Below are positions 2-22,165 of a stretch of 64,000 nt of DNA, in pieces (the first letter of the stretch is position 1; every line of letters starts with the position of its first letter). The notes beneath the pieces were generated by a model, which saw only the letters and a list, made by a program, of their open reading frames with translations, made no database searches and was not told the origin of the DNA. The position numbers were made by a program, and so were the translations under genes. The stretch is taken from contig JAEUIC010000030.1 in NCBI GenBank assembly GCA_016795285.1, positions 47,112 to 111,111 on the forward strand, in the 5' to 3' direction. This stretch comes from Planctomycetota bacterium (GTDB lineage: Bacteria > Planctomycetota > B15-G4 > SIAN01).

Positions 2-3000
2 GATCGCACCCACGTCGAGGAGAGCGGCTCCTCGACCCTCTTCCTGGCGCTCGGCTTCCTCGAGTGGTACGAGTCGCCCTCGAGCCAGCTCCCGCGCCTC
101 GCGCCGCTCCTGCTGCTGCCGGTGGTGCTCGAGCGGCGCGGCGTCGCCCGCCGCTTCACGCTCAAGCTGCGCGACGACGAGCCGCGCCTGAACGACGCGC
201 TCCTCGAGAAGCTGAAGAGCGAGCTCTCGATCGACCCCGAGCCGCTGCGCGCGCTGCCGCAGGACGACCACGGCGTCGACGTCGCGGCGCTGCTCGAGCG
301 CTTCCGGCAGCTGGTCGCCCGCGTGCCGCGCTTCACCGTGGTTGAGGAGGCGCGGCTCGGCTTCTTCTCGTTCGCCAAGTACCTGTTGTGGCGCGATCTC
401 GAGGAGCACGCCGAGGCGCTGCTCGAGAGCGAGCTGGTCCGCCACCTCGTGAAGCGCGCAGACGGCGGCGCCCTGCCCGATCCCGCCTTCGTCGAGGCGC
501 GCCGCCTGGACGAGGTGCTGCCGCCGACGAAGGCGCGCGTCGTGCTGGACGCCGACTCGAGCCAGCTGGTCGCCATCGAGGCGGCGGTGCGCGGCGCCAC
601 CTTCGTGCTGCAGGGGCCGCCCGGCACCGGCAAGTCGCAGACGATCGCCAACGTCATCGCCGGCTGCATCGCGGCCGGCAAGCGGGTGCTCTTCGTCGCC
701 GAGAAGCGCGCGGCGCTGGAAGTGGTGGCGAACCGCCTGAAGCGCGCCGGGCTCGGCAGCGCCTGCCTCGAGCTCCATTCGCAGCGCGCCGCCAAGCACG
801 AAGTGATCGGCGAGCTGGCGCGCACGCTCGAGGAGGCGCCGACCGCGCGGCGCGAGGACGACCCGCTGCTGGTCGAGCGGACCGAGCAGCTGATGCGGGA
901 GCTCGACGGCTATGCAGCGGCGCTCCATCGCCGCGGGCCGCTCGGCTTCAACCTCTACGAGTGCCTCGGCCGCATGGCGCGCGAACGCGGCGCGGCGTCG
1001 CTGCCGCCGTTGCCGTTGCGGGCGCCGCTCGAGGTCGATCGACGCGGCTACGAGCAGCGGCGCGCGGCGGTGGCGGAGCTCGCCGACGCAGCGGCGGCGG
1101 CGACGGCCGGCCACGACGGCGCGCTGGCGAACCACCCCTTCGCGCTCTGCCGTGCCATCGACCACACCCCGCTCGAAGCGCGCGAGCGCGAGCAGCAGCT
1201 GCGCGAACTGGTGACGCGCCTCGCGGACGCGAAGGGGGCGCTCGCCGCCGCCGCCAGCGCGCTCGGCCTCCCGCTGCCGAGCGGCCTCCCCGCGGCGCGC
1301 GCCGCCGTCGCGACGCTGCGACTGCTCGCCGAGCCGCTGCCCGGTCGCGCGGCGGAGTTCGTCCTCCGCAGCGACTTCGCAGAGGCGATCGAGCCGCTGC
1401 GGGACCTCGCGCGCGATCTCGAAGCCGATGCCGCCGCGCGCGCGACGCTCGCGCCGCGCTGGAACGAGACGCTCTTCACGCTCGACCTCGCCGCGCTCGA
1501 GCGGGAGTTCGCGCAGCACGGCGACTCCTTCGCGCCGCTGCGCTGGCTCAAGCTCCGCAGCGCGTGGGCGACGCTGACGCCGGCGCTGCGCGGCAAGGCG
1601 CCCGACGTGGCGCAGACGCGCGCCGACCTCGCGCTGGCGTCGGCCGTCGCCGCGCGCGCGCGCCGCTTCGCCGACGAGGCGTCGTTCCTCGACATGACGA
1701 TCGGCGCCGCCGCGCGCGGAGTCGCGACCGACCGCGCCGCGTTGCTGCGAACCGCGGCGTTCCTCGAGCGGTGGCAGGCGTTGCGCAACGACTGGAGCGG
1801 CGCGGGCGTGACGCAACCGCCGGCCGCGCGGCCGCTCGGTCCTGCGGGCGAGGCGGCGGCGCAAGCGCTCGATGCGGCGCTCGCGGCACTCGATGCAGCG
1901 CTGGCGACGGTGGCGACGGCGCTTTCGGTGGTGCCGGCGTGGCGCGATGGCCTCGCGGCGGCGCGCGACGGCCTCGGCCTGGCGACGACGACCGCGCAGC
2001 GCTGGCTGGAAGCGCTGCCGCTCTTGCGCGCCCATGCTCGCTACGTGCGGGCGGAGGAGGCGGCGCGCGCGCTCGAGCTGGCGCCGCTGGTCGACGCGGT
2101 GCGCCGCGATGCGTTGCCGCCCGCGGCCGCGCCGGCCGCCTTCGAGCGCGCCTTCTTCACGACGGTCGCCGAGCACGCGATCGGCGCGCTGCCGCCGCTG
2201 CGCAACTTCGACGGCACCCGCCACCACGCGCGCGCGCTGCAGTTCCGCGTCGAGGATGCGCGGCTGATCGCGGCGGGCGGGCGGCGGGTCGTCGCCGAGT
2301 GGAGCGGCCGGCGGACGCTGCGCTCCGACGCCGCCTTCGCCGGCTCCGAGGTCGAGACGCTGCAGCGCGAGGCGAAGAAGAAGCGACGGCAGAAGTCGGT
2401 GCGCCGGCTGCTCGGCGAGATCCCGACGCTGCTGCGCCAGCTGAAGCCGTGCCTCCTGATGAGCCCGCAGTCGATCGCGCAGTACCTGCCCGTCTCGAAG
2501 GAGCTCTTCGACCTGGTGCTCTTCGACGAGGCGTCGCAGATCCCGACGCATGACGCGATCGGCGCGTTGGCGCGCGGCCGCCACGTGGTGGTGGTCGGCG
2601 ACGAGAAGCAGCTGCCGCCCACCTCCTTCTTCGAGCGCGCGCTGGCCGACGACGAGGAGGAGAGCGACGACGCGCCCGACGGCGGCCTCGTGCGCGATCT
2701 CGAGAGCATCCTCGAGGAGGCGCAGGCGGCCGGCGTGCCGTCGCTGCCGCTGCGCTGGCACTACCGCAGCCGCGACGAGAGCCTGATCGCGTTCAGCAAT
2801 CGCCACTACTACGGCAGCCGCCTCCACACCTTCCCGGCCGCGGCGGGCGGCGCGCAGGGGCTCGGGGTCGCGCGCATCGATGTCGGCGGCACCTACGACA
2901 AGGCGGGCCAGCGCACCAACGAAGCCGAGGCGCGCGCGGTGGTGGCGTGGATCGTCGCGGCGCTCGCCGACCCGGCGCGGCGCGGCAAGTCGATCGGCGT

Positions 3001-4531
3001 CGTCACCTTCAACCAGCCGCAGCAGCTGTTGATCGAGGACCTGCTCGATGCGGCGCTGCTGGCGCAGCCCGAGCTCGAGCCGTTCGCCTCCGCGCCCGCG
3101 CACGGCGAGCCGCTCTTCATCAAGAACCTGGAGAACGTGCAGGGCGACGAGCGCGACACGATGCTCTTCTCGGTCACCTACGGGAAGGACGCGCAGGGCC
3201 GCCTCTCGATGAACTTCGGGCCGCTCAACAAGCGCGGCGGCGAGCGGCGGCTGAACGTCGCCATCACGCGCGCGCGCGAGCGGCTGGTGGTCTTCACGTC
3301 GCTGCGCCCCGACGAGATCGACCTGGCGAAGACGACGGCGCCGGGCGTGCGCCACCTGCGCGACTACCTCGACTATGCGGCGCGCGGGCCGCAGGCGCTG
3401 GCCGCCGCGGTCACCGTCGATCCTGAGGCGGAGTGCGAGTCGGAGCTCGAGGCCGACATCGCGCGGGCGCTCGAGGCGCGCGGCCACCTCGTCGACCGGC
3501 AGGTCGGCTGCTCCGGCTACCGGATCGACCTGGCGATCCGCGATGCCGACGCGCGCGGCCGCCACTGGCTCGGCATCGAGTGCGACGGCGCCGCGTACCA
3601 CTCGGGCGCGACGGCGCGCGATCGCGATCGGCTGCGCCAGTCGGTGCTCGAAGGGCTCGGCTGGCGGATCCACCGCATCTGGTCGTCCGACTGGCTCGAG
3701 CGGCGCGAGCAGGAACTCGACCGCGTCGAGCAGGCGCTGCGCGACGCGCGCGAAGCGGCCGCGCAGGCGGCGGCGCAGGCGGCGGCGAGCGCGGCGAGCG
3801 CGGCGAGCGCGGCGTCGGTCGCGGAGGCGAAGTCGGCGCCGCCGGTGATGGCGGCGGCGGTGACCGCGCCGGTGATTCCGCCGCCGCCGCTCGATGCGGC
3901 CACGAATGCCGCGCTGCCGGTGCCGAGCGCCGCTGCGAGTGCACCGTCAGCGGTCGCGCCGACGGCCGTCGAGCCGCCGCTCTACCGCTCCTTCGAGGTG
4001 GTGGTGGTCGGCTCGCGCGACGATCTCGACGACCCGGGCGCGGCCTTGCGACTCGAGGAGCTGCTGCTGCGGATCGTCGACGTCGAGGCGCCGCTCCACC
4101 AGAAGCCGCTGCTGCAGCGCGCGGCGCGCTGCCTCGGCATCGGCCGAATGAGCGCCACCATCGAGGAGCAGCTCGAGGCGCTCCTCGTCGCATTGGCGAT
4201 GGCTGGCCGCCTCTTGCGGCGCGGCGAGTTCGTCTGGGCCGCCGGCGTCGATCCGCTCCGCTACGACACGGTGCGCACGGCGGCGCCTGACGACGGCCCG
4301 CGTCCCGCCGAGCAGATCGCGCCCGAGGAGCGCGCCGCGGCGCTGCGCCGCGTGCTGGCGGCCGGCGGCGGGGGTGCAGCAGAAGACGTCGCCGCCGCCG
4401 CGGCGCGCCTCTTCGGCTTCAAAGCGGTGCAGCAGAAGACGCGCGCCCTCTTCCGCGAGACGCTCGAGCAGCTGGCCGCGGCCGGCGAGTGCGAGCGGGT
4501 CGGCGACGTGGTGCGGCCGCGGTCGAAGTGA
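2..4531 (+). CDS. Giant DUF4011 / SF1 (Upf1-like) helicase / DUF3320 / DUF559 (Vsr-like REase) protein, 5'-partial. Resembles the Hhe helicase-nuclease defense family.
   Basis: The frame is open to the window edge. An 'LFLALGFLEWYE' DUF4011-like segment lies upstream of the first Met. Walker A is 'GPPGTGKSQTIAN'. AAA_12-like helicase C-terminal motifs include 'LNVAITRARERLVVF'. The C-terminal 'RIDLAI...ECDGAAYHSGATARDRDRLRQSVLEGLGWRIHRIWSSDW' is a DUF559/Vsr-like endonuclease fold. The 'LLRIVDVEAPLHQKPL' tail is DUF3320-like. Confidence 0.85.
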   Translation, partial: DRTHVEESGSSTLFLALGFLEWYESPSSQLPRLAPLLLLPVVLERRGVARRFTLKLRDDEPRLNDALLEKLKSELSIDPEPLRALPQDDHGVDVAALLERFRQLVARVPRFTVVEEARLGFFSFAKYLLWRDLEEHAEALLESELVRHLVKRADGGALPDPAFVEARRLDEVLPPTKARVVLDADSSQLVAIEAAVRGATFVLQGPPGTGKSQTIANVIAGCIAAGKRVLFVAEKRAALEVVANRLKRAGLGSACLELHSQRAAKHEVIGELARTLEEAPTARREDDPLLVERTEQLMRELDGYAAALHRRGPLGFNLYECLGRMARERGAASLPPLPLRAPLEVDRRGYEQRRAAVAELADAAAAATAGHDGALANHPFALCRAIDHTPLEAREREQQLRELVTRLADAKGALAAAASALGLPLPSGLPAARAAVATLRLLAEPLPGRAAEFVLRSDFAEAIEPLRDLARDLEADAAARATLAPRWNETLFTLDLAALEREFAQHGDSFAPLRWLKLRSAWATLTPALRGKAPDVAQTRADLALASAVAARARRFADEASFLDMTIGAAARGVATDRAALLRTAAFLERWQALRNDWSGAGVTQPPAARPLGPAGEAAAQALDAALAALDAALATVATALSVVPAWRDGLAAARDGLGLATTTAQRWLEALPLLRAHARYVRAEEAARALELAPLVDAVRRDALPPAAAPAAFERAFFTTVAEHAIGALPPLRNFDGTRHHARALQFRVEDARLIAAGGRRVVAEWSGRRTLRSDAAFAGSEVETLQREAKKKRRQKSVRRLLGEIPTLLRQLKPCLLMSPQSIAQYLPVSKELFDLVLFDEASQIPTHDAIGALARGRHVVVVGDEKQLPPTSFFERALADDEEESDDAPDGGLVRDLESILEEAQAAGVPSLPLRWHYRSRDESLIAFSNRHYYGSRLHTFPAAAGGAQGLGVARIDVGGTYDKAGQRTNEAEARAVVAWIVAALADPARRGKSIGVVTFNQPQQLLIEDLLDAALLAQPELEPFASAPAHGEPLFIKNLENVQGDERDTMLFSVTYGKDAQGRLSMNFGPLNKRGGERRLNVAITRARERLVVFTSLRPDEIDLAKTTAPGVRHLRDYLDYAARGPQALAAAVTVDPEAECESELEADIARALEARGHLVDRQVGCSGYRIDLAIRDADARGRHWLGIECDGAAYHSGATARDRDRLRQSVLEGLGWRIHRIWSSDWLERREQELDRVEQALRDAREAAAQAAAQAAASAASAASAASVAEAKSAPPVMAAAVTAPVIPPPPLDAATNAALPVPSAAASAPSAVAPTAVEPPLYRSFEVVVVGSRDDLDDPGAALRLEELLLRIVDVEAPLHQKPLLQRAARCLGIGRMSATIEEQLEALLVALAMAGRLLRRGEFVWAAGVDPLRYDTVRTAAPDDGPRPAEQIAPEERAAALRRVLAAGGGGAAEDVAAAAARLFGFKAVQQKTRALFRETLEQLAAAGECERVGDVVRPRSK

Positions 4532-4552
4532 TTGCGCCGCGCGGCGGTGCCG

Positions 4553-5563
4553 TCAACCGCCGGGCGGGAGGTTGCGTTGCGGGAGGACGGGACGCGCCGG
4601 GCCGGTCGGCGCCTCCTCTTCTTCGAGCGTCGGCTGCGGCGTGCTGCTCGGCGCGAGATCGAAGAGCGAGAGCGTTCCCCAGAAGAGCGCCGCCGCGGCG
4701 GCGAGCGCGAAGAGGAGCGCGACGACGCGGGCAGCGGGGCCGCGCTGGTCGAGCTCGTCGCGCAGGAAGGCGAAGGGACCGCGCGTGCGCGGCGGCTTCG
4801 CGATCGGCGGCGGGACGTGGGCGGTCTGCGCCTTCGGCGAGCTCGCGGGGATCGGCTGCGCGCTCGAGCGGGAGGCGAAGTGGCGCGCCGTCTCGCCGCG
4901 CAGCTCGATCGAGGGGGCGCTGCTGGCGGCGGCGGGCTTGGCGGCCCCCGCGGTGGTGGAGCTGCTCGGCGCGGTCGTCTCTTCGGCGAAGGGGTCCTCG
5001 CCATCGACGGTGAGCGAGCGGCGCTCGCGGACGGGCGGCAGCTGCTCGGGCGGTACGCGGCCGGGAGGCGGCGGCGAAGAGGTGTTCGAGGGCGCCGTCG
5101 CGGCAGGGCGCGGGGCCGGCCTCGGCACCTCGGCGTCGGGCAACTCGAGCTCGAACGAACCGGTGCGTGGTTCGGCCGGGAAGACGGCCGGCGGAGCGGC
5201 GGGTCGCGGTGGCGGCGCGACCGGCGGAGGCGCGCTCGGCGGCGCGGCGCGCTTGCCCGAGGCGTGGTAGCGCAGCACCGTCGTGCCGAGCCGCACTTCG
5301 TCGCCGTCGGTGAGCGTCTGCAGCGTCACCTTCGCGCCGTTCACGAAGGTGCCGTGGCTCGAGTTGAGGTCGGCGATCCAGTGGCGGCCGTCGCGCAGGA
5401 AGACCTTCGCGTGCTGGCGCGAGACGGTCGCGTCGCCGACCACGTGGCTGTTGCCGGCGACGCGCCCGAGCGTCGTGTTGCCCGTCGCGAGCGGGAGCAT
5501 GCGACCGCTCTCCGGACCTTTCGTGATCTCGAGGGCGGCGGCGGCGAGGTCGGGCTCGTTCAT
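4553..5563 (-). CDS. FHA-domain protein with a Pro-rich linker and a C-terminal TM anchor
   Basis: The FHA core is 'TLGRVAGNSHVVGDATVSRQHAKVF...DLNSSHGTFVNGAKV'. The ATG lies at complement(5561..5563). A C-terminal hydrophobic helix reads 'VVALLFALAAAAALFWGTL'. The longer 693-aa ORF call is an upstream read-through artifact. Confidence 0.75.
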   Translation of the reverse strand: MNEPDLAAAALEITKGPESGRMLPLATGNTTLGRVAGNSHVVGDATVSRQHAKVFLRDGRHWIADLNSSHGTFVNGAKVTLQTLTDGDEVRLGTTVLRYHASGKRAAPPSAPPPVAPPPRPAAPPAVFPAEPRTGSFELELPDAEVPRPAPRPAATAPSNTSSPPPPGRVPPEQLPPVRERRSLTVDGEDPFAEETTAPSSSTTAGAAKPAAASSAPSIELRGETARHFASRSSAQPIPASSPKAQTAHVPPPIAKPPRTRGPFAFLRDELDQRGPAARVVALLFALAAAAALFWGTLSLFDLAPSSTPQPTLEEEEAPTGPARPVLPQRNLPPGG

Positions 5564-5704: not shown

Positions 5705-8700
5705 GTGGCCGCGCGGGGTCGAGTGGAGACGGCGATGGTCCCGATCGATGCGGGGGTCGTTCCGCTGCTGGTGGCCCTGTTCACGGCAATGCAGGGCGCG
5801 CCGCCGCCGATCGCGCCGTCGCGGGGCGCGCCGCCCGCTGGCGCGATCGGAGCGGCGGGCGCGGCGCCGACGAGCGCGATGCTCGACGCGCTCACCTTCG
5901 CGGCGACCTTCGATCGCGGCCTCGATGCCGAGGTCGCGCGCGGCGATGGCCGACTCCACCACGGCCCGTCGTGGGGACCGCCACGCCACGGCGAACCGGG
6001 CCTCGTGCCGAGCGGCGCCGTGACGCGCGAACGGCGCGGCGCGCTGCGCGGCCAAGCGCTGCGCTTCCAGCGCCGCACCGACGAGCTGCTCTTCTTCCAC
6101 GGCGCCGGCAACACGCCGTGGCGCGCGCGCGACTGGAGCGGGACGCTCTCCTTCTGGCTCTGCGCCGAGCCGCAGGGCGAGCTGCCGGACGGCTTCTGCG
6201 ATCCGGTCACCGTCACTTCGAAGGACTGGAACGACGCCGGCCTCTTCTGCGAGTTCGAGAAGCGGGAGATGTTCCGCCACTTCCGCATGGGCGCCTACGC
6301 CGACCTCGCGGTCTGGAACGCGACGAGCAAGCCGTGGGGCGAGCTCTCCTTCGAGGAGAAGTCGCTGGCGCAGGTCGAAGCGGAGGACCACTTCGGCGGC
6401 CGCTGGACGCACGTGGCGATGGCGTTCGAGCGGTTCAACAGCGGTGCCGCCGACGGCGTCGCGCGCCTCTACCTCGACGGCCAACTCGCGGCGACGCTCT
6501 CGCCGCGCCTGCAGACGTGGACGTGGGAGGAGGCGGCGCAACGGATCGTGCTCGGCCTCAACTACGTCGGCTGGCTCGATGAGCTCGCCTGGTTCGATCG
6601 AGCGCTGACCGAAGGAGAGATCGCGGCGCTCCACGCGTTGCCGGGCGGGCTCGCCGATCTCTGGCGGCCGCGCGTGGCGGTGGGGGCGGCGAAGGTCGAC
6701 GTCACGCCGCGCTTCCCGATCCGCTTATGCGGCTACGCCTCGCGGGAGAAGGAGGCGACCTCCGCCGTGCAGCCGCTCTTCGCTCGCGCGCTCGCCGTCG
6801 GCGAAGGGGACGACCTCGCGCTGCTGCTGGCGCTCGACAACACGGCGGTGCCGCAGCGGATGACCGACGAGGTGGCGGTGCGGCTCGCCGAGCGGTTCGG
6901 TCTCCAGCCGGAACGGTTCACGCTCAGCGTCACCCACACGCACGCCGCGCCGGTTCTGGACGGCGGCATCGACTGCATGTTCGGGCGGCCCATTCCGGCC
7001 GACCAGTGGCAGCGGATCGAGCAGTACAGCCGCGAGCTCGTCGATCGGCTGGAGGAGGCGGGCGCGGCCGCGATCGCGGCGCGCGCACCGGCGCTGCTGT
7101 CGTGGAGCGAGGGGCAGGTCGACTTCGCGCGCAATCGGCGGACGGCGGGCGGGCCGGTCGATCGGGCGCTGCCGCTGCTGGCGGTGTTCCGCGAGGATGG
7201 GACGCTCGCCGCGACGGTGCAGAACTACGCCTGCCACTGCACCGCGTGCGACGGCAGCGTGAACCAGCACTGCGGCGACTGGGCCGGCTACGCGTCGGAG
7301 GGGATCGAGGCGGCGCACGGCGGCGCGGTGGCGCTGACCGTCATCGGTTGCGGCGCCGACGCCAATCCGGCCGACGGGCCGAGCGGCGACCTGCGCGTCG
7401 CGCAGCGCCACGGCGCGAGCGTCGCCGCCGAAGTCGCGCGGCTGCTGCGCGGGCCGCTCGTGCCGCTGCTGACCGATCGAGCGCGCGACGGCGGCGCGCC
7501 GCAGATCGCGCTCGAGCGGCTCGAACTGCCCTACGCCCCCTTCCCGACGCGCGAGCAGTGGGCGGCGCGCGTGAAGGCAGGCGGCGCGGTCGGCTTCCAT
7601 GCGGCGCAGTGGCTCGCGCGCCTCGATCGCGGCGAGGCGTTGCCCGCCGCGCTGCCCTACTCGGTGCAGGCGTGGCAGTGGGGCGACGACCTCGTGCAGC
7701 TCTTCCTGCCGGGCGAGGTGGTGGTCGACTACGCGCTGCGCTTGAAGCGCGAGCTCGATCGCGCGCGCCTCTGGGTCACCGCCTACAGCAACGACGTGCC
7801 GTGCTACATCCCGAGCGAACGGATCCTCCGCGAAGGGGGCTACGAGGCGGGCGGCGCGATGACCTACTACGGACGGCCGGGGCCGCTCGCGGCGGGCGTC
7901 GAGCAGCGCATCGTCGACGCGGTCCATCGGCTGGTGCCGCCCGCGTTCGCCGCTCCGCCCGACGATCCGCGCTTCCCGACGGCGAAGAGCGCGGCCGAGT
8001 CGCGCGAGCAGTTCGAGCTGTCGCGTGACGACCTCGCCGTCGAGCTGGTCGCGTGCGAGCCGCAGGTGCAGAGTCCGGTCGCGATCGACTTCGCCGCCGA
8101 TGGCACGGTCTACGTCTGCGAGATGAACGACTACCCGACCGGCCTCGATGGCAACTACCAGCCGGGCGGCCGCGTCACCTGGTTGCGCGATCGCGACGGC
8201 GACGGCCGCTTCGAGCAGAGCGGCGTCTTCGTCGACGGCCTGCCCTTCCCGACCGGCGTGATGAGCTGGCGGCGCGGCGCGCTGATCTGCGCGGCGCCCG
8301 ACATCCTCTACGCCGAGGACCGCGACGGCGACGGTCGCGCCGACGTGAAGCAGGTGCTCTTCACCGGCTTCTCGACCGAGAACTACCAGGCGCGCGTCAA
8401 TTCGCTGACGTGGGGGCTCGACGGCTGGATCTACGGCAGCTGCGGGCTGTTCGGCGGCGTCATTACGGGCTTCGCGCACGACGCACTCGGTCGCGCGAGC
8501 GGTGCGGCTCCGCAGGCACTGCCGCCCGTCGACTGCCGCGGCCGCGACTTCCGCCTCGATCCGGCGCGCGGCGTCATCGAGGCGATCGAGGGGACGAGCC
8601 AGCAGGGCCGCGTGCGCGACGACTTCGGCCGCTGGTTTGGCTGCGATTCGGGCTGGCTCGTCTTCGAGTTCCCGCTCGCCGATCGCGTCTTGCGCCGCAA

Positions 8701-11653
8701 TCCGTTCGTCGTGCCGCTCGATCCGCGCTCGAACGTGCTGGCCGACGCCGATCCGCGCCAGCTCTTCCAGGTCAGCACGGTGCTCGAGCGGTTCAACGAG
8801 GCGGGCGATGCGAGCCGCGTGACCGGCGCGTGCGGGATCGGGATCTACCGCGACGAGTGGCTCGGCACGGAGCTGTACGGCAACGCGTTCACTTGCGAGC
8901 CGGTGGCGAACGTCGTGCGGCGCACCGTGCTCGACACTCGCGGCAGCGCGGCGATCGGAAGGCGGGCGCCCGAGGAGGCGTCGCGCGAGTTCCTGGCCAG
9001 CCGCGATCCGTGGTTCCGGCCGGTGCAAGCGACCACCGGCCCCGACGGCGCGCTCTGGATCGTCGACATGTACCGCTTCGTGATCGAGCACCCGCGCTGG
9101 ATCCCCGCCGCGAAGCTCGCCGAGCTCGACGTGCGCGCCGGCGCGACGATGGGGCGGCTCTGGCGAGTGGTGAAGAAGGGGGCAGAGCGGCGCAACGTGG
9201 CGGACCTCGCGAACGCCGACGTCGCGCAACTGCGCGAACCGCTGGCGAGCCGCAACGGCGTGGTGCGCGACCTCGCGCATCGGGAGCTGCTGGCGCGGGT
9301 CGAGCCGCGCGCGCCGCGCTCGGTCGCCGAATCGGTCACCGAGTCGATCGCGAGCGGCGCGCCGAGCGGGGTCGAGGCGATCGCTGGCCGCATGCGCGCG
9401 ACCGCTCCGGCGGCGAAGGTGCAGGAGGCGTGGTGCTTCGCGCAGCTCGGCTGGCTCGAGGAAGGGGACGTGAGCGAGTTGCTGGCGTTGAACCAGCTGC
9501 CCGAGGTGCGCGCCGCCTGCATGCCGCTGGCGGAAGAGTGGTTGTCGAGGTTGACCGAGGAGTCGAGCGCTGCGAGCTGGCGCGGCGGTTCGCTGGCCCC
9601 GCCCCATCCGGTGACGGAGTGGAGCGTCTGGACGCCGGCGGACTGGAAGAGCCTCGAGAGCGATCGGGGTGGCGAAGGGGGCGGTCGCGCGCCGCGCCGC
9701 TCCTTCGAGCCGACCGGTCGCGAGCGGTTGCAGTCAGCGCTGGCGTTGAGCGAGTGCGCGACGACCTCCTCGGGGCGGCTGCTCGGCGAGCTGCTGGCGT
9801 TGCATGGCGACGATCCGTGGCTGCGCGCCGCGGTGGTGAGCGCTGCGCCGCGCCATGCCGGCGCGCTGCTCGAGGCGCTGCTCGATGCGCGACTCGCGGG
9901 GGCGACGCGCAGCCTGGCGCAACAGGAGGCGCTCGAAGCGGTGGTGACGACCGTCGGCGCGCTGCCGGCCGAGGCGCAGGCGGTGAAGCGCGCGGCGCTG
10001 GTTCCACTGCTCGGGGAAGGCGACGCGGCGAGTCGCGAGCCGTGGCGCTGGCGGGCGCTCGCGCGGTTGCTTGGCCCGGTTAGCGGCGGCAGCGGCGGCA
10101 GCGGCGGCAGCGGCGAGCCGAGCGGCGGCGGGGCGGACTTGCCGGCGTCGCTCGCGGCGCAGCTCGAGCGCCATCGGAGTGCCGCTCGCGAGGCGCTGCA
10201 GCGCGCGGACGTCGGGGGCGGCGCGGAGGAGGCCGACGCGGAGGAGTCCGACGCGGAGGAGTCCGACGCGGCGCCGGTCGCGGCGCTCGAGCTCTTATGC
10301 AGCGAGGCCACGCTGTCCAATTCGGCGGCGCTGCCGCTCGCCGAGCTCGCCGCGTTCGTCGAGCCGCGCCACTCGGCGCCGCTCGCCGGGGCGGCGCTCT
10401 CCGCGCTGGCGCGACGGGGTGATCGCGGCACGGCGGCCGAGCTGCTGCCGCGGTTGCCGCGCCTGCTGCCGGAGCGGCTCGGTGCCGCGCTGGCGCTGCT
10501 GCTGTCGCGCCCCGAATGGCGCCACGAGCTGCTCGCGGCGCTCGAGGCGGGGACGCTGTCGCGCGCGCTGCTCGATGCGGCGGCGCGCGAGCGGCTCTTG
10601 GCCGACGACGATGCGGCGCTGCGCGAGCGGGCGGCGAAGTTGCTGGCGCGCGGCGGCACCCCGAAGCGCGCGCAGGTGATCGCGCAGTTCCAGCCGGCGC
10701 TGTCGCTGGCGGGCGACCACGCGCACGGCAAGGCGCTCTTCGCGAAGCTCTGCGCGAGCTGCCATGCGTTCCGCGGCGTCGGCCACGAGGTGGGGCCCGA
10801 CCTCGCGGCGCTCGGCGATCGCAGCGCGCCGCGGCTGCTCGAGTCGCTGCTCGACCCGAACGGGGCGGTGAACGGCGAGTTCGTCAACTACCGCGTGGTG
10901 CTGAAGGACGGCAGCGATCTGTCGGGGCTGATCCGCGGCGAGTCGAGCGGCGGCTTCACGCTGGTGCAGGCGAACGACCAACGGCGCACGCTGCGTCGCG
11001 CCGAGGTCGCCGAGGTGAAGGCGTCGAAGCTGTCGCTGATGCCGGAAGGGCTCGAGGAGGGGCTTTCGGCGCAGGATCTCGCTGACTTGATCGCGTGGCT
11101 GCAGAGCGGGCCGCTGCGTCTCGGTGCGTTGTCGGCCGAATCGATCGCGGCGGCGCGCGCGGAGCTGGCGGCGGCGCCGCTGAACGGCTACGCGCAACTG
11201 CTCGAGCGGTTCGACGACTTCGCGCAGCCGAGCTGGCTCGGCGTGGTGCCGATGCGCTACTGCCGGCAGCAGGACGGCACGCAGCGGGTGCGCTGGCGCA
11301 GCGGGCCCGCGGAAGCGGTGGCGGGCGACCCGGCGCGCGTGCAGCTGCGCTTCGCCGTCGCGATGGGGCTCGTGTCGCAGCCGACGGCGGGCTTCGCGCT
11401 CGCGATCGACGGCGTCGAGCGGCTCCTCTTCGATGCGGTGGTGACCGATGCGAGCTGGAGCGCGGCGGCCGAGGCGGGCGAGCTGCCGATCGAACTCGCC
11501 TTCGAGTGCCGCGCCGCCCACTCCGAGGACGCGACCGGCGTCATGACCCTGACGCTCCCCGCCGAGCGCTTCCCCGCCGGCTCCACCGTCGAACTGACCG
11601 TCACCGGCCGCGCGGCCCCAAGCCTGCGCTGGTTCGGCCTCCTCGTCCCCTAG
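5705..11653 (+). CDS. Multidomain secreted/membrane protein. Domain order is LamG-like jellyroll, neutral/alkaline-ceramidase-like, TIGR02604-type membrane-bound dehydrogenase beta-propeller, HEAT repeats, then a C-terminal TIGR02603-type cytochrome c (CxxCH).
   Basis: An N-terminal hydrophobic stretch 'MVPIDAGVVPLLVALFTAM' means the true start may be about 5735. The ceramidase motif is 'SVTHTHAAP' with flanking conservation. The dehydrogenase domain reads 'VAIDFAADGTVYVCEMNDYP'. HEAT-like repeats follow. The heme site is 'CASCHAFRGVGHEVGPDLAAL'. Low-complexity GGS and EESDA linkers occur near 10081-10270. The stop TAG at 11651-11653 is contributed by the adjacent repeat element. Confidence 0.8.
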   Translation: MAARGRVETAMVPIDAGVVPLLVALFTAMQGAPPPIAPSRGAPPAGAIGAAGAAPTSAMLDALTFAATFDRGLDAEVARGDGRLHHGPSWGPPRHGEPGLVPSGAVTRERRGALRGQALRFQRRTDELLFFHGAGNTPWRARDWSGTLSFWLCAEPQGELPDGFCDPVTVTSKDWNDAGLFCEFEKREMFRHFRMGAYADLAVWNATSKPWGELSFEEKSLAQVEAEDHFGGRWTHVAMAFERFNSGAADGVARLYLDGQLAATLSPRLQTWTWEEAAQRIVLGLNYVGWLDELAWFDRALTEGEIAALHALPGGLADLWRPRVAVGAAKVDVTPRFPIRLCGYASREKEATSAVQPLFARALAVGEGDDLALLLALDNTAVPQRMTDEVAVRLAERFGLQPERFTLSVTHTHAAPVLDGGIDCMFGRPIPADQWQRIEQYSRELVDRLEEAGAAAIAARAPALLSWSEGQVDFARNRRTAGGPVDRALPLLAVFREDGTLAATVQNYACHCTACDGSVNQHCGDWAGYASEGIEAAHGGAVALTVIGCGADANPADGPSGDLRVAQRHGASVAAEVARLLRGPLVPLLTDRARDGGAPQIALERLELPYAPFPTREQWAARVKAGGAVGFHAAQWLARLDRGEALPAALPYSVQAWQWGDDLVQLFLPGEVVVDYALRLKRELDRARLWVTAYSNDVPCYIPSERILREGGYEAGGAMTYYGRPGPLAAGVEQRIVDAVHRLVPPAFAAPPDDPRFPTAKSAAESREQFELSRDDLAVELVACEPQVQSPVAIDFAADGTVYVCEMNDYPTGLDGNYQPGGRVTWLRDRDGDGRFEQSGVFVDGLPFPTGVMSWRRGALICAAPDILYAEDRDGDGRADVKQVLFTGFSTENYQARVNSLTWGLDGWIYGSCGLFGGVITGFAHDALGRASGAAPQALPPVDCRGRDFRLDPARGVIEAIEGTSQQGRVRDDFGRWFGCDSGWLVFEFPLADRVLRRNPFVVPLDPRSNVLADADPRQLFQVSTVLERFNEAGDASRVTGACGIGIYRDEWLGTELYGNAFTCEPVANVVRRTVLDTRGSAAIGRRAPEEASREFLASRDPWFRPVQATTGPDGALWIVDMYRFVIEHPRWIPAAKLAELDVRAGATMGRLWRVVKKGAERRNVADLANADVAQLREPLASRNGVVRDLAHRELLARVEPRAPRSVAESVTESIASGAPSGVEAIAGRMRATAPAAKVQEAWCFAQLGWLEEGDVSELLALNQLPEVRAACMPLAEEWLSRLTEESSAASWRGGSLAPPHPVTEWSVWTPADWKSLESDRGGEGGGRAPRRSFEPTGRERLQSALALSECATTSSGRLLGELLALHGDDPWLRAAVVSAAPRHAGALLEALLDARLAGATRSLAQQEALEAVVTTVGALPAEAQAVKRAALVPLLGEGDAASREPWRWRALARLLGPVSGGSGGSGGSGEPSGGGADLPASLAAQLERHRSAAREALQRADVGGGAEEADAEESDAEESDAAPVAALELLCSEATLSNSAALPLAELAAFVEPRHSAPLAGAALSALARRGDRGTAAELLPRLPRLLPERLGAALALLLSRPEWRHELLAALEAGTLSRALLDAAARERLLADDDAALRERAAKLLARGGTPKRAQVIAQFQPALSLAGDHAHGKALFAKLCASCHAFRGVGHEVGPDLAALGDRSAPRLLESLLDPNGAVNGEFVNYRVVLKDGSDLSGLIRGESSGGFTLVQANDQRRTLRRAEVAEVKASKLSLMPEGLEEGLSAQDLADLIAWLQSGPLRLGALSAESIAAARAELAAAPLNGYAQLLERFDDFAQPSWLGVVPMRYCRQQDGTQRVRWRSGPAEAVAGDPARVQLRFAVAMGLVSQPTAGFALAIDGVERLLFDAVVTDASWSAAAEAGELPIELAFECRAAHSEDATGVMTLTLPAERFPAGSTVELTVTGRAAPSLRWFGLLVP

Positions 11654-11787
11654 GTGGCGGGGAGAAAACGGCGGTCAGATCCGCACCTCGGAGGGTGCGA
11701 CGGCGGCGAATGCGGTTGCGGGCTTAGGGGCGTGGCGTGGTGACGTCGGTGAAGTGCGGATTCGACCGCCGTTTTCCCCCCGCCACC
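11653..11787. repeat. REP/MITE-like element, locus 1. Two inverted 34-nt units (11653-11686 and 11754-11787) flank a 67-nt spacer and form a long potential hairpin.
   Basis: GGTGGCGGGGAGAAAACGGCGGTCAGATCCGCAC ... GTGCGGATTCGACCGCCGTTTTCCCCCCGCCACC. The same unit recurs at 50794-50910 and 63239-63307. Confidence 0.85.
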
Positions 11788-11884
11788 TTGGCGGAAGCGG
11801 CACTACCGGCGCGAGCCGGATAACAGGTCTTCGGCTCGTGGCTCTGGCGAGGGGCTGCCGCAAGGGCGGCGCGAGGAGCCGAGC

Positions 11885-12886
11885 ATGGAGCGGACGAGGG
11901 CGGAACGGTCGAGCGGCGCCGGCGGCGGAGTCGTGCGCGAGCGCTGTCGCTGGTCGAGGGCGGGCGCGCTGCTCGGGCTGTTGGCGGCGGTGGTCGCCGG
12001 CGGCTGCACGAAGGCGCGCGCGCTCAGCCCCGACGAGCAGCAGGCGCAGGTGGCGCCGGCCAAGCCGGGGACGGCGGCGACCGTCTACACCGTGAAGGTG
12101 CCGGGCGTCGGCTGAAGCGGCGGCCCCAAGGTCCGTGCGGCCTTGCTGAAGCTGAAGGGGATCGCCGAGTTCGCGTTCGACTGCAAGACGGCGACGCTGA
12201 CGATGGAGGCGGGCGCCACGCTGCGCGAGAGCGACGTGCTCGAGGCGCTGAAGAAGGACGGCTTCACCGGCGAGTCGTTCTCCGCGAGCGCGCCGCCGCC
12301 GATCGCCATCGTCGAAGCGAGCGTCGAGTTGCTCGCTCGCGGGGCGCGTTTCGATGCCGCGACCTGCCGCACCGTCGCCGAGCAGCTCGCCGCCGCGCTG
12401 CCGATGACGAGCGACTGGCAGGTCGGTGCCGATGGCCGCGCGCGCGGCCGCTTCACCGCGACGCCGCCCGCGCCCGCGGCGCTCGAAGCGCTGTTGCTCG
12501 ACGCGCTGGCGAAGCCGCGCAGCGCGCCGCCCGCGGCCGACGGTGCGACTGGTGGTGCGACTGGTACTGCGCCCGCTGCGGCGCCAGCTCCTGCCCCTGC
12601 CGCCGCCCCGCTCGAGTGGCGCCTCGTCCGTTCGAGCGCGCAGCTGCTCGAGTGGCCCGCGAGCGTCGCTCGCGCGAACGTGACGCTGGCGGCGCCGCTC
12701 GCGCCGTCGAGCTGGCCGGCGCTGCGCACCGCGCTCGCGTCGCTCGAGCAGATCGTCGCGTGGTCGCCGGGCGGCGACGGTGCGACGCTCGTGGTCTGGA
12801 CCAAGGAGCCGTGCGCCAACCTCGCGACGCGACTCGCCGGCGCACTCGCGCCGCTCGCGATCACGGTGGCGCGCGTCGATTCTTGA
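11885..12886 (+). CDS. HMA (heavy-metal-associated) domain lipoprotein, with an in-frame TGA at 12113-12115 at the first metal-binding Cys position. Either a selenoprotein candidate or a disrupted gene.
   Basis: The signal and lipobox read 'LLGLLAAVVAGGC'. A ferredoxin-like HMA fold reads straight through the TGA as 'TVYTVKVPGVG[TGA]SGGPKVRAALLKLKGIAEFAFDCKTATLTMEAG..SDVLEALKKDGF'. ORFs 11885..12115 and 12143..12886 are in the same frame. The true start may be GTG/ATG within 11885-11960. Confidence 0.5.
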
Positions 12887-12926
12887 AGCTCTCGAATCGC
12901 CCCGCCGAGGGCACACGGAGGGATCC

Positions 12927-13778
12927 ATGCTCGCGACACCATTCGCCACGATCCGTCGACTTGCCGCCTGCGCGGCGACCGGCGGCGCCCTGCTCGCGCT
13001 CTGCCACCCGCTCCCCGCCGCCGAGCCCGGCCACGCCGCGCTCGCCTGCCCCGCTCCCGCTGCCCTCGCCGCGCCCCCCGCATCGCTCGGCGCGCCGCTG
13101 ATCTGCTTCCCGCTCGAGGTCGCCGACGAGGCGCTGCTGCCGTTCGAGCCGGGGAGCGAGACGCGGCCCACCGTCGCGCCCGCCGAGCTGCCGGCCGCGC
13201 TCGCGACGCTCTTCGCCGCCCACGCCGATCCGCTGCTCCACATGGAGGCGCTGCGGCGCACCGTGATGACGCTCACCCACGATCCGGTCGCGCAGCCGTC
13301 GAGCCGCGCCGCCGCGCAGCCGACCCACTTCGCGCGCCTCCTCGCGGCGCTCGAAGCGGCCGTCGTCGCTGCCGAGCTGCTCCCCGCCGACGATCCCGCC
13401 GCGCCCGCGCGCCGCGCGCTCGCTTGGTTCGACCTCGGCTATGCGCGCGAGACGGGCGCCACGATGGGGCTCACCCGCGAGCGCGGCGGCGGCTGTCTCG
13501 CGAAGGCGTGCCGCCTGCAGCCCGACGCGCCGCTCCTGCGCTTCGGCACCGCGCTGGTCGCCTTCCAGGAGGAGCGCATCGAGCGGGCGGTCGACGGCAC
13601 CGGCGCTCCTATCAGCGCGGGCGACTGGCGCGACCACCTGCGCCATGCGATGGTCGGCACGCCGTCACCGCTGCTCACCCGCAACCTGCTCTCGACCTTC
13701 GGAGCTTTCTTGGATCACCGCACCTTCGAGGCCCTCCGTGCTGCTGTCGCCGGTGGCGCTGACTCCCGCGATCGCTGA
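12927..13778 (+). CDS. Hypothetical secreted protein
   Basis: The ATG at 12927 is followed by the signal-like 'MLATPFATIRRLAACAATGGALLAL'. Its 3' end overlaps the start of the ECF sigma gene. No domain was recognised. Confidence 0.5.
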   Translation: MLATPFATIRRLAACAATGGALLALCHPLPAAEPGHAALACPAPAALAAPPASLGAPLICFPLEVADEALLPFEPGSETRPTVAPAELPAALATLFAAHADPLLHMEALRRTVMTLTHDPVAQPSSRAAAQPTHFARLLAALEAAVVAAELLPADDPAAPARRALAWFDLGYARETGATMGLTRERGGGCLAKACRLQPDAPLLRFGTALVAFQEERIERAVDGTGAPISAGDWRDHLRHAMVGTPSPLLTRNLLSTFGAFLDHRTFEALRAAVAGGADSRDR

Positions 13779-14301
13779 CGACGGCGCGGTCGCCGGCCTG
13801 GCGCGCGCCGCCAGCGCCGGCGATCGCGGCGCGTTCGCGCAACTGCACGCTCGCTTCGCGCGAGCGGTGCGGGCGCTGCTGCTCGCCCATGCGCCGTTGC
13901 GCGAGGTCGACGACCTCCTGCAGGAGACCTTCCTGCAGGCGTGGCGCGCGCGCGCCGCGTTGCGCGAGCCGGACCGCTTCGGCGCGTGGCTCTTCGCGAT
14001 CGGCCGCTCGCTGGCCGGTCGCGCGCGCCGCCGCGCGCCGCGCGAGGAGCTGCCCGAGTCGCTGCCCGCGCCGGGCGCCGAGCGCCACGCGCAGCTCGCG
14101 GCCGAAGGGGCCGAGGCGCTCGCCGCGCTGCGCGAGCTGCCGGAGGCGTACCGCGAGACGCTCGCGATGCGGTTGATCGAGGGGCTGTCGGGGCCGGAGA
14201 TCGCGGCGGCGACCGGCCTCACGCACGGTTCGGTGCGCGTCAATCTCCACCGCGGCATGGAGCTGTTGCGCGAACGACTGCACGCGGGAGTGAAGCGATG
14301 A
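13753..14301 (+). CDS. ECF-type RNA polymerase sigma factor
   Basis: Region 2 reads 'LLQETFLQAWRA'. Region 4 reads 'LSGPEIAAATGLTHGSVRVNLHRGMELLRERL'. The GTG start at 13753 is inferred. The stop overlaps the anti-sigma start as ATGA. Confidence 0.8.
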   Translation: MALTPAIADDGAVAGLARAASAGDRGAFAQLHARFARAVRALLLAHAPLREVDDLLQETFLQAWRARAALREPDRFGAWLFAIGRSLAGRARRRAPREELPESLPAPGAERHAQLAAEGAEALAALRELPEAYRETLAMRLIEGLSGPEIAAATGLTHGSVRVNLHRGMELLRERLHAGVKR

Positions 14302-15455
14302 ACGACCCGCACGACGATCCGCTCTTCGATCCCGCGCTGCCGGCCGACGCCGAGCTCGGCGCGCTCGAGCGCCGCTTCGCGCCGCTGCGCGAGCGACCGT
14401 TGCCACCGTTGCCGCCGCTCACCGACGCGGCGCCCGAAGGGGTCGCGCCGCGGCTGCGCTTGCTGCGGGGCGGGCGAGCGGCGGCGGCGGCCGTGCTGCT
14501 GCTCGCGGCCGCCGCAGGAGCGTGGCGCCTCTCGATCGGCGCGGGCGGCGCTGCGGGTGGCGGCGCAAGCGGCGGCGACGCGAGCGGCGGCGCGAGCGAG
14601 CGCGAGCCGCGGGCGCCGGTGGCGAGCGCGGTCGAGGGCGCGGCGCTCGACGTTTCGCTGGCGCGGCGCGACGGCGCGGTGCGCGTCGAGCCGGCCGCGG
14701 GCGGCGCGGCGCGCGACGGCACCGACCCCGATGCGCTGCAGCTCGGCGACCGGATCGTCTGCGAGCCGGGCGGCGGCGCGCGCGTGCGCGTCGGCGCCAT
14801 CGGCTGGCTCGAACTCGCCGAGCGGACCGAGCTGCGCGTCGCGGCCGGCCATGGCGATCGCACCCGCGAAGGGGGGTGGCATCTCGAGCTCGAGCGCGGC
14901 ACGGTCGACGCGACGATCTTCGCGGCGCCGCGCGTCTTCGCGCTCGGCACGCCGGCCGGCATCGCGGTCGACCTCGGCTGCATCTACCGGACCACGGTCG
15001 ACGGCGAGGGACGCGTCTTCCTGTCGGTCGTCGCGGGCAGCGTCTCGTTCGAGAGCGGCGGACGCAAAGTGCACGTGCCAGCGGGTGCCGGCTGCCGCGC
15101 GTGGCCGATGGTCGGTCCCGGCGTTCCGTCGTGGGACGACGACGCGCCGGAGCTGAAGGAGCTGCTGCGGCTCTACGACGAGTCGCGCCTCTGCGGCGAT
15201 GGCGTCACCGCGGAAGAGCGGATCGAGCAGCTGCTCGCGCTGCTCGGGCCGAAGCCGGCGCCGCGCGCCTCGCTGTCGTTGTGGCACCTGCTCGCCGGGC
15301 TCGCGCCCGACGCGCCGCCGGCGTTGCGCACGCAGCTGGCCGATCGGCTCGCCGCGCTGGTGCCACCGCCCGAGAAGGCACCGCTCGAGCGCTGCCGCAG
15401 CGGCGATGCCGAGGCGCTCGCCGAGTGGCGCGAGGCGCTCGAACTCCACTGGTGA
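14298..15455 (+). CDS. Anti-sigma factor, FecR-domain, single TM
   Basis: The ATG at 14298 overlaps the sigma stop. The TM helix reads 'AAAAVLLLAAAAGAW'. The FecR-like beta domain reads 'GDRIVCEPGGGARVRVGAIGWLELAERTELRV...GTVDATI'. Confidence 0.75.
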   Translation: MNDPHDDPLFDPALPADAELGALERRFAPLRERPLPPLPPLTDAAPEGVAPRLRLLRGGRAAAAAVLLLAAAAGAWRLSIGAGGAAGGGASGGDASGGASEREPRAPVASAVEGAALDVSLARRDGAVRVEPAAGGAARDGTDPDALQLGDRIVCEPGGGARVRVGAIGWLELAERTELRVAAGHGDRTREGGWHLELERGTVDATIFAAPRVFALGTPAGIAVDLGCIYRTTVDGEGRVFLSVVAGSVSFESGGRKVHVPAGAGCRAWPMVGPGVPSWDDDAPELKELLRLYDESRLCGDGVTAEERIEQLLALLGPKPAPRASLSLWHLLAGLAPDAPPALRTQLADRLAALVPPPEKAPLERCRSGDAEALAEWREALELHW

Positions 15456-22088: not shown

Positions 22089-22165
22089 GTCGAGCGCGAT
22101 GACGTCGCTCGCGCGGCGCGGTGACGCGCCGTTTCCCCTTCACGCGCCGCCGCTATGACTCCGCC

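Follow-up and report, generated by a model that had tools for sequence, protein, structure and literature searches.

A 5′-truncated helicase-nuclease gene in a high-GC Planctomycetota bacterium belongs to the ProA/PDC-S37 family, a sister family of Hhe

The left edge of the window (the whole stretch of 64,000 nucleotides that was analysed, from a Planctomycetota bacterium) carries the 3′ part of a gene for a giant helicase-nuclease. A sequence-only reading had taken this gene for an Hhe-like, probable single-gene antiphage defence. This raises the questions to which family the protein belongs, and whether it is directed against invading DNA or serves the chromosome on which it resides.

The gene is represented by a single open frame (frame 2) of 1509 codons, which ends with TGA at 4529-4531. 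It is already open at base 2, and no start codon was found within the window.

2..4531 (+): ProA-family helicase-nuclease gene, 5′-truncated (open frame, NCBIfam ProA, PADLOC PDC-S37, orthologue lengths)

The GC content at the three codon positions is 0.79/0.52/0.95, as in real genes of this 75% GC window, and both GC content and GC3 are native to the window. The GC3 of 0.95 shows that the reading frame is maintained. The truncation at the window edge, already suspected, is real: orthologues have 2060-2109 aa, and homologue alignment places about 611 N-terminal residues upstream of the window. The in-window part is the 3′ 72% of the gene, and the full protein has about 2100 aa.

Within the window, the C-terminal part of DUF4011 comes first, followed by the Upf1-like SF1 helicase, the Vsr-like nuclease, and lastly a tandem winged helix (DUF3320). 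The features are:

5..214 (+): DUF4011, C-terminal part, aa 2-71 (Pfam, profile positions 89-158 of 158)
554..745 (+): SF1 helicase RecA1, first part, AAA_11, aa 185-248 (Pfam and motifs)
614-637 (+): Walker A, GPPGTGKS, with lysine K211 (invariant in 26 homologues)
692-715 (+): helicase motif Ia (invariant in 26 homologues)
779..2341 (+): Ala/Leu/Arg-rich insert of ~520 aa splitting RecA1, aa ~260-780 (two-stretch AAA_11 match)
2525-2539 (+): helicase motif II, DEASQ (invariant in homologue alignment)
2597-2620 (+): helicase motif III, GDEKQLPP (invariant in homologue alignment)
2702..3298 (+): helicase RecA2, AAA_12, aa 901-1099 (Pfam; Upf1/IGHMBP2/DNA2-type matches)
3137-3157 (+): helicase motif V, VQGDERD (homologue alignment)
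3254-3277 (+): helicase motif VI, NVAITRAR (homologue alignment)
3449..3739 (+): Vsr-like endonuclease domain, REase_MTES_1575, aa 1150-1246 (Pfam, E 2e-33)
3527-3529 (+): nuclease catalytic-type residue D1176
3578-3580 (+): nuclease catalytic-type residue E1193, in the IECDG motif
3584-3586 (+): nuclease catalytic-type residue D1195
3599-3601 (+): nuclease catalytic-type residue H1200
3617-3631 (+): nuclease RDRDR motif
3854..3955 (+): Ala/Ser/Pro-rich disordered linker, aa 1285-1318, preceded by a long helix (pLDDT <50, model residues 186-219)
4016..4528 (+): C-terminal tandem winged-helix module, aa ~1339-1509 (DUF3320 and fold)

DUF4011, an Upf1-like SF1 helicase and a Vsr-like nuclease had been proposed to be joined in one polypeptide, and Pfam matches to all of them bear this out. 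The HMMs that had been suggested for comparison (DUF4011, AAA_11, AAA_12, DUF3320, DUF559) all matched, DUF559 weakly and over the REase_MTES_1575 stretch, and DUF3320 at aa 1340-1389 with 25.9 bits (cutoff 25). While DUF3320 and the Vsr/DUF559-type nuclease are thus present as stated, the nuclease is not the C-terminal-most domain, since the order is helicase, nuclease, DUF3320. Because only the last part of its profile is matched, DUF4011 is cut by the window edge; in the orthologue P0001 it is complete (aa 511-682). The insert that splits RecA1 (A 25%, L 14%, R 12%) is putatively helical and poorly conserved, with few conserved columns in the homologue alignment, and the alignment with IGHMBP2 picks up again at aa 778, past the insert. 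Judged from the sequence, every motif of the helicase and of the nuclease is intact.

The part of the protein encoded upstream of the window is represented by an orthologue, the N-terminal region of which has an Ig-like domain and a transglutaminase core (model pLDDT 93.7); the transglutaminase-like model matches TG2/TG3/FXIIIa. Profile searches detected no HEPN domain in the in-window protein or in the orthologue. The Vsr-like REase, the transglutaminase and the wHTH (DUF3320) were each confirmed by profile or fold. Via the orthologues, the architecture can be given in full: an Ig-like and a transglutaminase-like domain precede DUF4011 and the split SF1 helicase, after which come the Vsr nuclease and a pair of winged helices.

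The protein belongs to the family named "anti-phage protein ProA" in NCBIfam and PDC-S37 in PADLOC, where PDC-S37 is a candidate class only; this family is a sister of Hhe. On the NCBIfam ProA model (NF058533, equivalog), the 72% fragment reaches 1456.5 bits and aligns with positions 468-1902 of the 1903 in the profile, the cutoff of 1500 being one for the whole protein. Full-length orthologues from the same locus (P0001, P0002, and P0003) reach 1840, 1838, and 1763 bits. PDC-S37 is the top PADLOC match by a wide margin, with 1258.9 bits and a profile covered from position 114 to 1545 out of 1550. On the Hhe model of NCBIfam (NF042953), the protein attains 762 bits (cutoff 2000), and the full-length orthologues attain 732-777 bits; PADLOC Hhe gives 549 bits. 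The Hhe models cover only the C-terminal half of the helicase and the nuclease (aa ~660-1276; aa 662-1276 for NF042953). For calibration, Klebsiella Hhe scores 2621 bits on the Hhe model and only 1131 on ProA, while plasmid proteins from Pseudomonas aeruginosa and Klebsiella michiganensis score 2372 and 2222 bits on ProA. Membership in Hhe is ruled out by the sub-cutoff scores and by the architecture. The relatedness to Hhe and the kind of domains had been recognized correctly, and the label is corrected from Hhe to ProA/PDC-S37.

Hhe is reportedly the single-gene system of Gao et al. 2020. Its DUF4011 and its Upf1-like SF1 helicase, likewise split, recur in the protein studied here, as does the IECDG...YH...RDRDR motif of its Vsr-like nuclease, but sequence identity is ~36% and extends over two blocks only. 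The region preceding DUF4011 has ~130 aa in Hhe versus ~420-510 aa in ProA, and, according to alignment offsets, the 1825-aa Klebsiella Hhe ends soon after the nuclease and appears to be devoid of the tandem winged helix. Proteobacterial ProA proteins are matched much more completely: the ProA/PDC-S37 profile match runs end to end from mid-DUF4011 to the C-terminus, the same-locus orthologues exceed the curated cutoff, and the domain order is that of the P. aeruginosa and Klebsiella plasmid members. These differ in sequence (~40-42% identity in aligned parts) and in being borne on plasmids or ICEs, whereas the gene is chromosomal, syntenic, and vertical in the high-GC Planctomycetota. Proteobacterial ProA members go by cluster names such as "DUF3320 domain-containing protein" or "DNA helicase-related protein" only. 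Proteins of the MTES_1575 type combine Vsr-family REase, transglutaminase, and wHTH (DUF3320) domains (Anantharaman et al., 2013, PMC3710099), all of which are matched in the protein or its orthologue; MTES_1575 itself also has a HEPN (SWT1/Abi2) RNase domain, unlike ProA as searched here. With the SF1B helicases Upf1, IGHMBP2, and DNA2, the similarity is confined to the RecA1/RecA2 core and its motifs; DUF4011, the Vsr nuclease, and the winged-helix modules are all missing from these enzymes.

To the right, the gene is followed by two conserved flank markers:

4553..5563 (-): FHA-domain protein, 336 aa, with C-terminal hydrophobic segment (FHA E 8.5e-16; conserved right flank)
5705..11653 (+): giant DUF7133/ceramidase-like/cytochrome c protein (second conserved flank marker, syntenic in relatives)

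The convergent FHA gene is indeed 21 bp away, with exactly that distance between the stop codons (4532-4552), and a scan for terminators and promoters around this gap revealed nothing. As a partner of ProA, the FHA protein was rejected: it is convergent, has no PADLOC match, and is split from ProA by other genes in three relatives (L003, L004, and L038). There is no conserved partner gene. Neither the window nor the orthologues' 10-kb flanks revealed an integrase, a restriction-modification system, or another PADLOC match, with the sole exception of L003, where a PDC-S01-like gene is inserted directly beside ProA. Both the window and the orthologous loci represent ordinary stretches of chromosome and not a defence island, the organism's own region upstream of the window being out of sight. 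The proposal of a probable single-gene antiphage defence thus agrees with the missing partner and the intact nuclease site but obtains no island context here. The ordinary local chromosome and the candidate status of PDC-S37 speak against a defence function.

Because a scan of GTDB genomes yielded only one close relative (L004), the locus was surveyed on metagenome contigs. The order GT4 glycosyltransferases/ProA/FHA/DUF7133 is conserved in seven related Planctomycetota contigs, and ProA is present at the locus in seven of nine. One of the two contigs without it (L017) retains the promoter region and the first ~20 and last ~15 ProA codons between intact flanks, a clean deletion scar; in the other (the contig that carries P0129), the slot holds an HATPase_c_3 protein and two TPR proteins. 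Related genomes can thus lose the ProA gene, and because of this scar and the other genes in the slot of the second contig we regard the gene as dispensable and not housekeeping. The sequence-only reading had named a contrary case, a housekeeping Upf1/Sen1-like helicase which lacks a nuclease site and is universal at this locus; the site is intact, and the gene is common but not universal there, being present in seven contigs and absent from two, so that this case does not apply. Identity across the relatives is 93/78/68/61/59% for ProA and 90/73/67/69/68% for DUF7133. ProA diverges no faster than its neighbours, with the seven contigs spanning 59-93% protein identity. The retention at the same locus in seven of nine contigs and the neighbour-like divergence, which count against a defence function, also fit a maintenance function.

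We consider it reasonably likely that the protein is a ProA-family single polypeptide which acts alone against invading DNA, and that its gene in this Planctomycetota lineage has long resided in the chromosome and been passed on vertically, and is not cargo recently brought in by an island. The defence label draws on three things: the name that databases give to the family, the presence or absence of the gene in relatives, and the location of distant members on mobile elements. In favour of defence are also a member in Geomonas that adjoins an nSTAND NTPase and a resolvase, and the PDC-S01-like insertion beside ProA in L003. Counting against it, two distant Planctomycetota members have no defence neighbours, and a large DUF4011 gene is reported to be core in P. 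aeruginosa (PMC10250203). As no experimental report on ProA was found in the literature searched, "anti-phage" is a database name only. In the proposed mechanism, ProA alone would act on the DNA of invading phages or other mobile elements. Recognition of the nucleic-acid substrate, or control of access to it, would fall to the winged helices together with DUF4011 and the N-terminal module. The helicase would translocate on the substrate with ATP, with a 5′-3′ polarity assumed from the Upf1/IGHMBP2/DNA2 class, and the Vsr-like domain would nick or cut DNA. The IECDG motif is common to Hhe and this ProA protein, and E1193 aligns with E1727 in the IECDG of Klebsiella Hhe; by position, it would match E1731 of E. 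coli Hhe. In Hhe, the nuclease mutation E1731A is reported to abolish defence (bioRxiv 10.1101/2022.06.16.496414).

Alternatively, the protein could be a domesticated genome-maintenance enzyme, concerned with repair of the cell's own DNA or with R-loop or stalled-fork processing as are DNA2, Sen1, and IGHMBP2. The constant neighbourhood of GT4 cluster and FHA/DUF7133 across seven contigs at neighbour-like divergence, the native composition, the lack of defence or mobile genes nearby, the resemblance of the helicase core to IGHMBP2, DNA2, and Upf1, and the core status of a DUF4011 gene in P. aeruginosa (PMC10250203) would all be expected of such an enzyme. However, the gene is deleted in one relative and replaced in another and is therefore not essential, and this presence/absence series argues against a housekeeping role. 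The IGHMBP2/Upf1-type model TIGR00376 is matched with only 82.5 bits (cutoff 348.9), members are frequent on plasmids and ICEs (the wider family is matched in 494 plasmid records), and the Vsr-like nuclease, transglutaminase-like and winged-helix sensor-type modules are of the type found in conflict systems (PMC3710099). We thus consider a maintenance function unlikely.

The distant members bring up another explanation, namely that ProA is a weapon of one element against another or an addiction-type gene. The family would then chiefly serve mobile elements, in competition between ICEs or plasmids and in keeping out rival elements, with the chromosomal copy left behind and fixed after an old insertion. 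ProA-scoring proteins are encoded in accessory regions of a conjugative, PAPI-1-like plasmid/ICE of P. aeruginosa, beside a toxin-antitoxin pair and a bacteriocin, and a plasmid copy is flanked by copies of IS110. In Desulfovibrio, a member is located inside an integrase/TrwC element. The slot in relatives also takes up other insertions. Nevertheless, no relative shows an integrase, repeats, or element borders at this locus, housekeeping genes make up the flanks, and the composition is native, so that we judge this explanation to be quite improbable; it overlaps with the defence reading, from which sequence alone does not separate it. That the gene is an inactive, decaying relic is very improbable and already largely refuted: the deletion in L017 and the position of the 5′ part outside the window would suit it, but the 1509-codon frame is uninterrupted, the alignment with orthologues is end to end at up to 93% identity, and every helicase and nuclease motif is kept at a GC3 of 0.95.

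Our verdict is that the protein is a new addition to an already known family of single-gene defence proteins; what it does in the host organism we infer. The finding contributes a family member and not a new principle, and the call of a defence gene was right in kind but ordinary. It also puts on record, for a phylum that has received little study, how the gene comes and goes in nature: seven contigs have it, one bears the deletion scar, and one has other genes in its place. The wider DUF4011-helicase superfamily comprises 9,628 clusters (50% identity) that match at E <= 1e-30. A PDB sequence search returned generic helicase cores only (best E-value 2e-9) and no solved structure of any relative beyond these, only three phage genome records matched, none of them informative, and a published ProA mechanism was not found in the literature searched. 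Because the superfamily is so large and neither a relevant structure nor a ProA mechanism was found, any experimental handle is useful.

In P. aeruginosa, a large core DUF4011 gene, PA14_RS11765, flanks the defence hotspot cDHS1 (Johnson et al., 2023, PMC10250203). By analogy, ProA, too, may be viewed as occupying a fixed chromosomal position beside a spot of variable insertions, but here it is ProA itself that varies, in two relatives. It is conceivable, though we put it forward only tentatively, that the interval from GT4 to FHA/DUF7133 is a lineage-specific immune slot in this high-GC Planctomycetota clade, with ProA as its long-term vertical resident. If so, ProA would be a "core-like" immune gene, unlike the cargo of islands with fast turnover, and the occasional replacements in the slot would be a PDC-S01-like ATPase or a GHKL-type HATPase_c_3 protein together with TPR proteins.

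The gene at the left edge of the window is open in frame 2 from base 2 to a TGA at 4529-4531 (1509 codons) and has no start codon inside the window. In orthologues, about 611 residues precede the first residue encoded here, in line with the 5' truncation already proposed from the sequence alone. GC at the codon positions of this frame (0.79/0.52/0.95) is as in the real genes of the window, which has about 75% GC throughout; overlapping antisense ORFs show a shadow pattern instead.

The top PADLOC match of the fragment is candidate PDC-S37 (1258.9 bits, profile positions 114-1545 of 1550), and the top NCBIfam match is the equivalog "anti-phage protein ProA" (NF058533; 1456.5 bits, profile positions 468-1902 of 1903). 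The latter score is slightly below the cutoff of 1500 for the sole reason that the window lacks about a quarter of the protein. Full-length orthologues from the same locus score 1840 (P0001), 1838 (P0002), and 1763 (P0003) and are 78%, 68%, and 61% identical to the window protein. With the Hhe models, the fragment reaches 548.6 bits (PADLOC, confined to aa 677-1256) and 762 against a cutoff of 2000 (NCBIfam Hhe_antiphage). For calibration, a Klebsiella plasmid protein annotated as Hhe scored 2621 on the Hhe model and 1131 on the ProA model, and plasmid "DUF3320" proteins from P. aeruginosa and K. michiganensis scored 2372 and 2222 on the latter. Judged by these scores, the gene is therefore a new member of the already known ProA/PDC-S37 family, sister to Hhe, and an Hhe identity is ruled out. 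The Hhe-family defence label of the sequence-only reading was thus right in kind but named the wrong sister family. A housekeeping Upf1/Sen1-like helicase devoid of a nuclease site, which that reading had considered, disagrees with the score on the IGHMBP2-type helicase model (82.5 vs. a cutoff of 348.9) and with the retained nuclease residues.

Features of the ProA fragment (2-4531, + strand; Pfam domains and helicase motifs)
aa 2-71: DUF4011 (only profile positions 89-158 matched)
aa 185-248: AAA_11
aa 205-212: Walker A, GPPGTGKS
aa 842-846: DEASQ
aa 901-1099: AAA_12
aa 1150-1246: REase_MTES_1575 (E 2e-33), with a weak DUF559 match in the same stretch
aa 1340-1389: DUF3320 (25.9 bits, cutoff 25)

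All four domain types expected in one polypeptide (DUF4011, SF1 helicase, DUF3320, DUF559/Vsr-like nuclease) were thus found by Pfam, with DUF4011 cut by the window edge, as its restricted match indicates. The nuclease is not the C-terminal-most domain, as had been assumed; the order is helicase, nuclease, DUF3320. The SF1 motifs are all present (further ones being motif Ia, GDEKQLPP, VQGDERD, and NVAITRAR) and are invariant in 26 homologues. A poorly conserved, Ala/Leu/Arg-rich insert of about 520 aa splits the RecA1 domain. The nuclease retains the Vsr/DUF559-type residues RID(1176)LAI, IE(1193)CD(1195)G, YH(1200), and RDRDR. Residues ~1268-1320 (window 3800-3960, + strand) comprise a low-complexity run of Ala, Gln, and Ser (AAAQAAAQAAASAASAASAAS...), after which comes a stretch rich in Pro and Ala; this region is predicted to be disordered and differs in length between homologues.

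Pfam finds nothing in residues 1-510 of P0001. A model of its residues 149-474 (pLDDT 93.7) predicts an Ig-like beta-sandwich followed by a transglutaminase core, with TG2, TG3, and factor XIIIa as top structural matches. Of the aligned homologues, 90% or more keep the Cys and His of the N-terminal RMGxC...GHA..G.W motif. Judged by alignment offsets, Hhe (the 1825-aa Klebsiella protein) appears to have neither this long N-terminal module nor the winged helices at the C-terminus of ProA. Solved structures among the relatives cover generic helicase cores only.

As previously noted, an FHA-domain protein is the convergent neighbour (336 aa, 4553-5563, - strand, with a C-terminal hydrophobic segment); the two stop codons are 21 bp apart. 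Orthologous loci share the order polysaccharide/GT4 genes, ProA, convergent FHA, divergent DUF7133.

Retrieved orthologous loci (identity to the window ProA)
L039: 93%, with a 21-bp gap as in the window
L038: 86%
L004, with the same gene on L001: 78%
L002: 68%
L003: 61%
L040: 59%

At loci allowing comparison of both genes, DUF7133 identity is 90, 73, 67, 69, and 68%, and ProA diverges no faster than this neighbour. Together with its native composition, this points to vertical inheritance and purifying selection. Outside the window, about 30-40 bp 5' of the start codon, all relatives keep a CCTACAATCG motif (L001:2390-2460, L002:9950-10000, L003:9950-10000, L004:3140-3205, L017:135-170), which looks like a putative -10-type promoter element.

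ProA is not universally conserved at this locus: seven related contigs have the gene and two do not, and it is therefore dispensable. On L017 (metagenome contig Ga0194128_10028772; DUF7133 82% identical to that of the window) it is gone. The clean deletion scar (L017:1-330, equivalent to window 4487-4552) consists of the end of the upstream gene, a CCTACAAT box that is conserved, and ~20 codons from the start of ProA, joined to DNA homologous to its ~15 final codons, which leads directly into the FHA stop. The junction falls within similar GC-rich strings, as expected for a microhomology deletion. On the contig of FHA orthologue P0129 (JGI 3300041967), a HATPase_c_3 protein and two TPR proteins replace ProA. 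Insertions between ProA and FHA are an AAA_14/DUF4143 gene (L003:16184-17527, matching PADLOC candidate PDC-S01) and a ~650-aa membrane protein (L004:9535-11484 and L038:1253-3199). Among nine window and inserted genes near ProA, PADLOC matched only the L003 insert, and ProA has no conserved partner. The spot between ProA and FHA thus takes different insertions in relatives and could represent a small slot of variable or hotspot-like character. This natural deletion and replacement series at a conserved Planctomycetota slot and the full ProA architecture are the most useful by-products.

The DUF4011-helicase superfamily is extensive, with 9,628 clusters (50% identity) matching at E <= 1e-30; the top 150 consist mainly of proteins of ~1900-2100 aa that align over essentially the whole 1200-aa query. 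Distant ProA genes are found on a conjugative PAPI-1-like plasmid of P. aeruginosa (in its accessory region, adjoining ParDE and a bacteriocin), flanked by IS110 copies on a Klebsiella plasmid, within an integrase/TrwC element in Desulfovibrio, and, in Geomonas, beside a resolvase and an nSTAND NTPase of 1670 aa. Two further Planctomycetota members lie among housekeeping genes. A relative occurs in 494 plasmid records, 243 of them from Klebsiella; those inspected among the latter are mostly Hhe, with at least one ProA among them (K. michiganensis, L015). Of the alpha- and beta-proteobacterial plasmid relatives, those that match best look ProA-like.

We consider a stand-alone ProA-type defence enzyme the best-supported and a rather likely reading. 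An ATP-driven Upf1-like translocase would bring the Vsr-like nuclease to invading DNA, gated by the Ig-like/transglutaminase-like, DUF4011, and winged-helix parts as recognition or regulatory modules; we infer target, trigger, and polarity. A defence role in the source organism is suggested by the database name, the mobile-element or defence surroundings of distant members, and Hhe, where the Glu homologous to that of the ProA nuclease is reportedly needed for defence (bioRxiv 10.1101/2022.06.16.496414). The main rival, a domesticated genome-maintenance enzyme, would fit the stability of the locus and the fact that P. aeruginosa has a core DUF4011 gene (PMC10250203); the two natural losses of ProA speak against this role, which we regard as unlikely. 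A role in competition between elements, inseparable from defence by sequence alone, is still less probable. With the catalytic motifs intact, gene decay is essentially excluded.

The remainder of the window is ordinary chromosome, with HEAT-repeat proteins, ECF sigma factors, a GGDEF protein, peptidases, a Ser/Thr kinase, glycosyltransferases, an ABC transporter, and the following features.

5705-11653 (+): DUF7133/cytochrome c giant (1982 aa; Laminin_G_3, ceramidase-like N-domain, DUF7133, C-terminal cytochrome c motif), adjoining the FHA gene in every relative examined
11753-15455 (+): four successive ORFs of high GC3 and uncertain boundaries, without Pfam or PADLOC match
21069-22139 (-): YhgA/Rpn-like "Transposase_31" PD-(D/E)XK protein with a DUF4351 tail, the sole mobile-element-type gene seen in the window
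62070-62154 (+): 85-nt tRNA-Gln(CTG) called by ARAGORN inside a long ORF (60081-62753), probably a false positive
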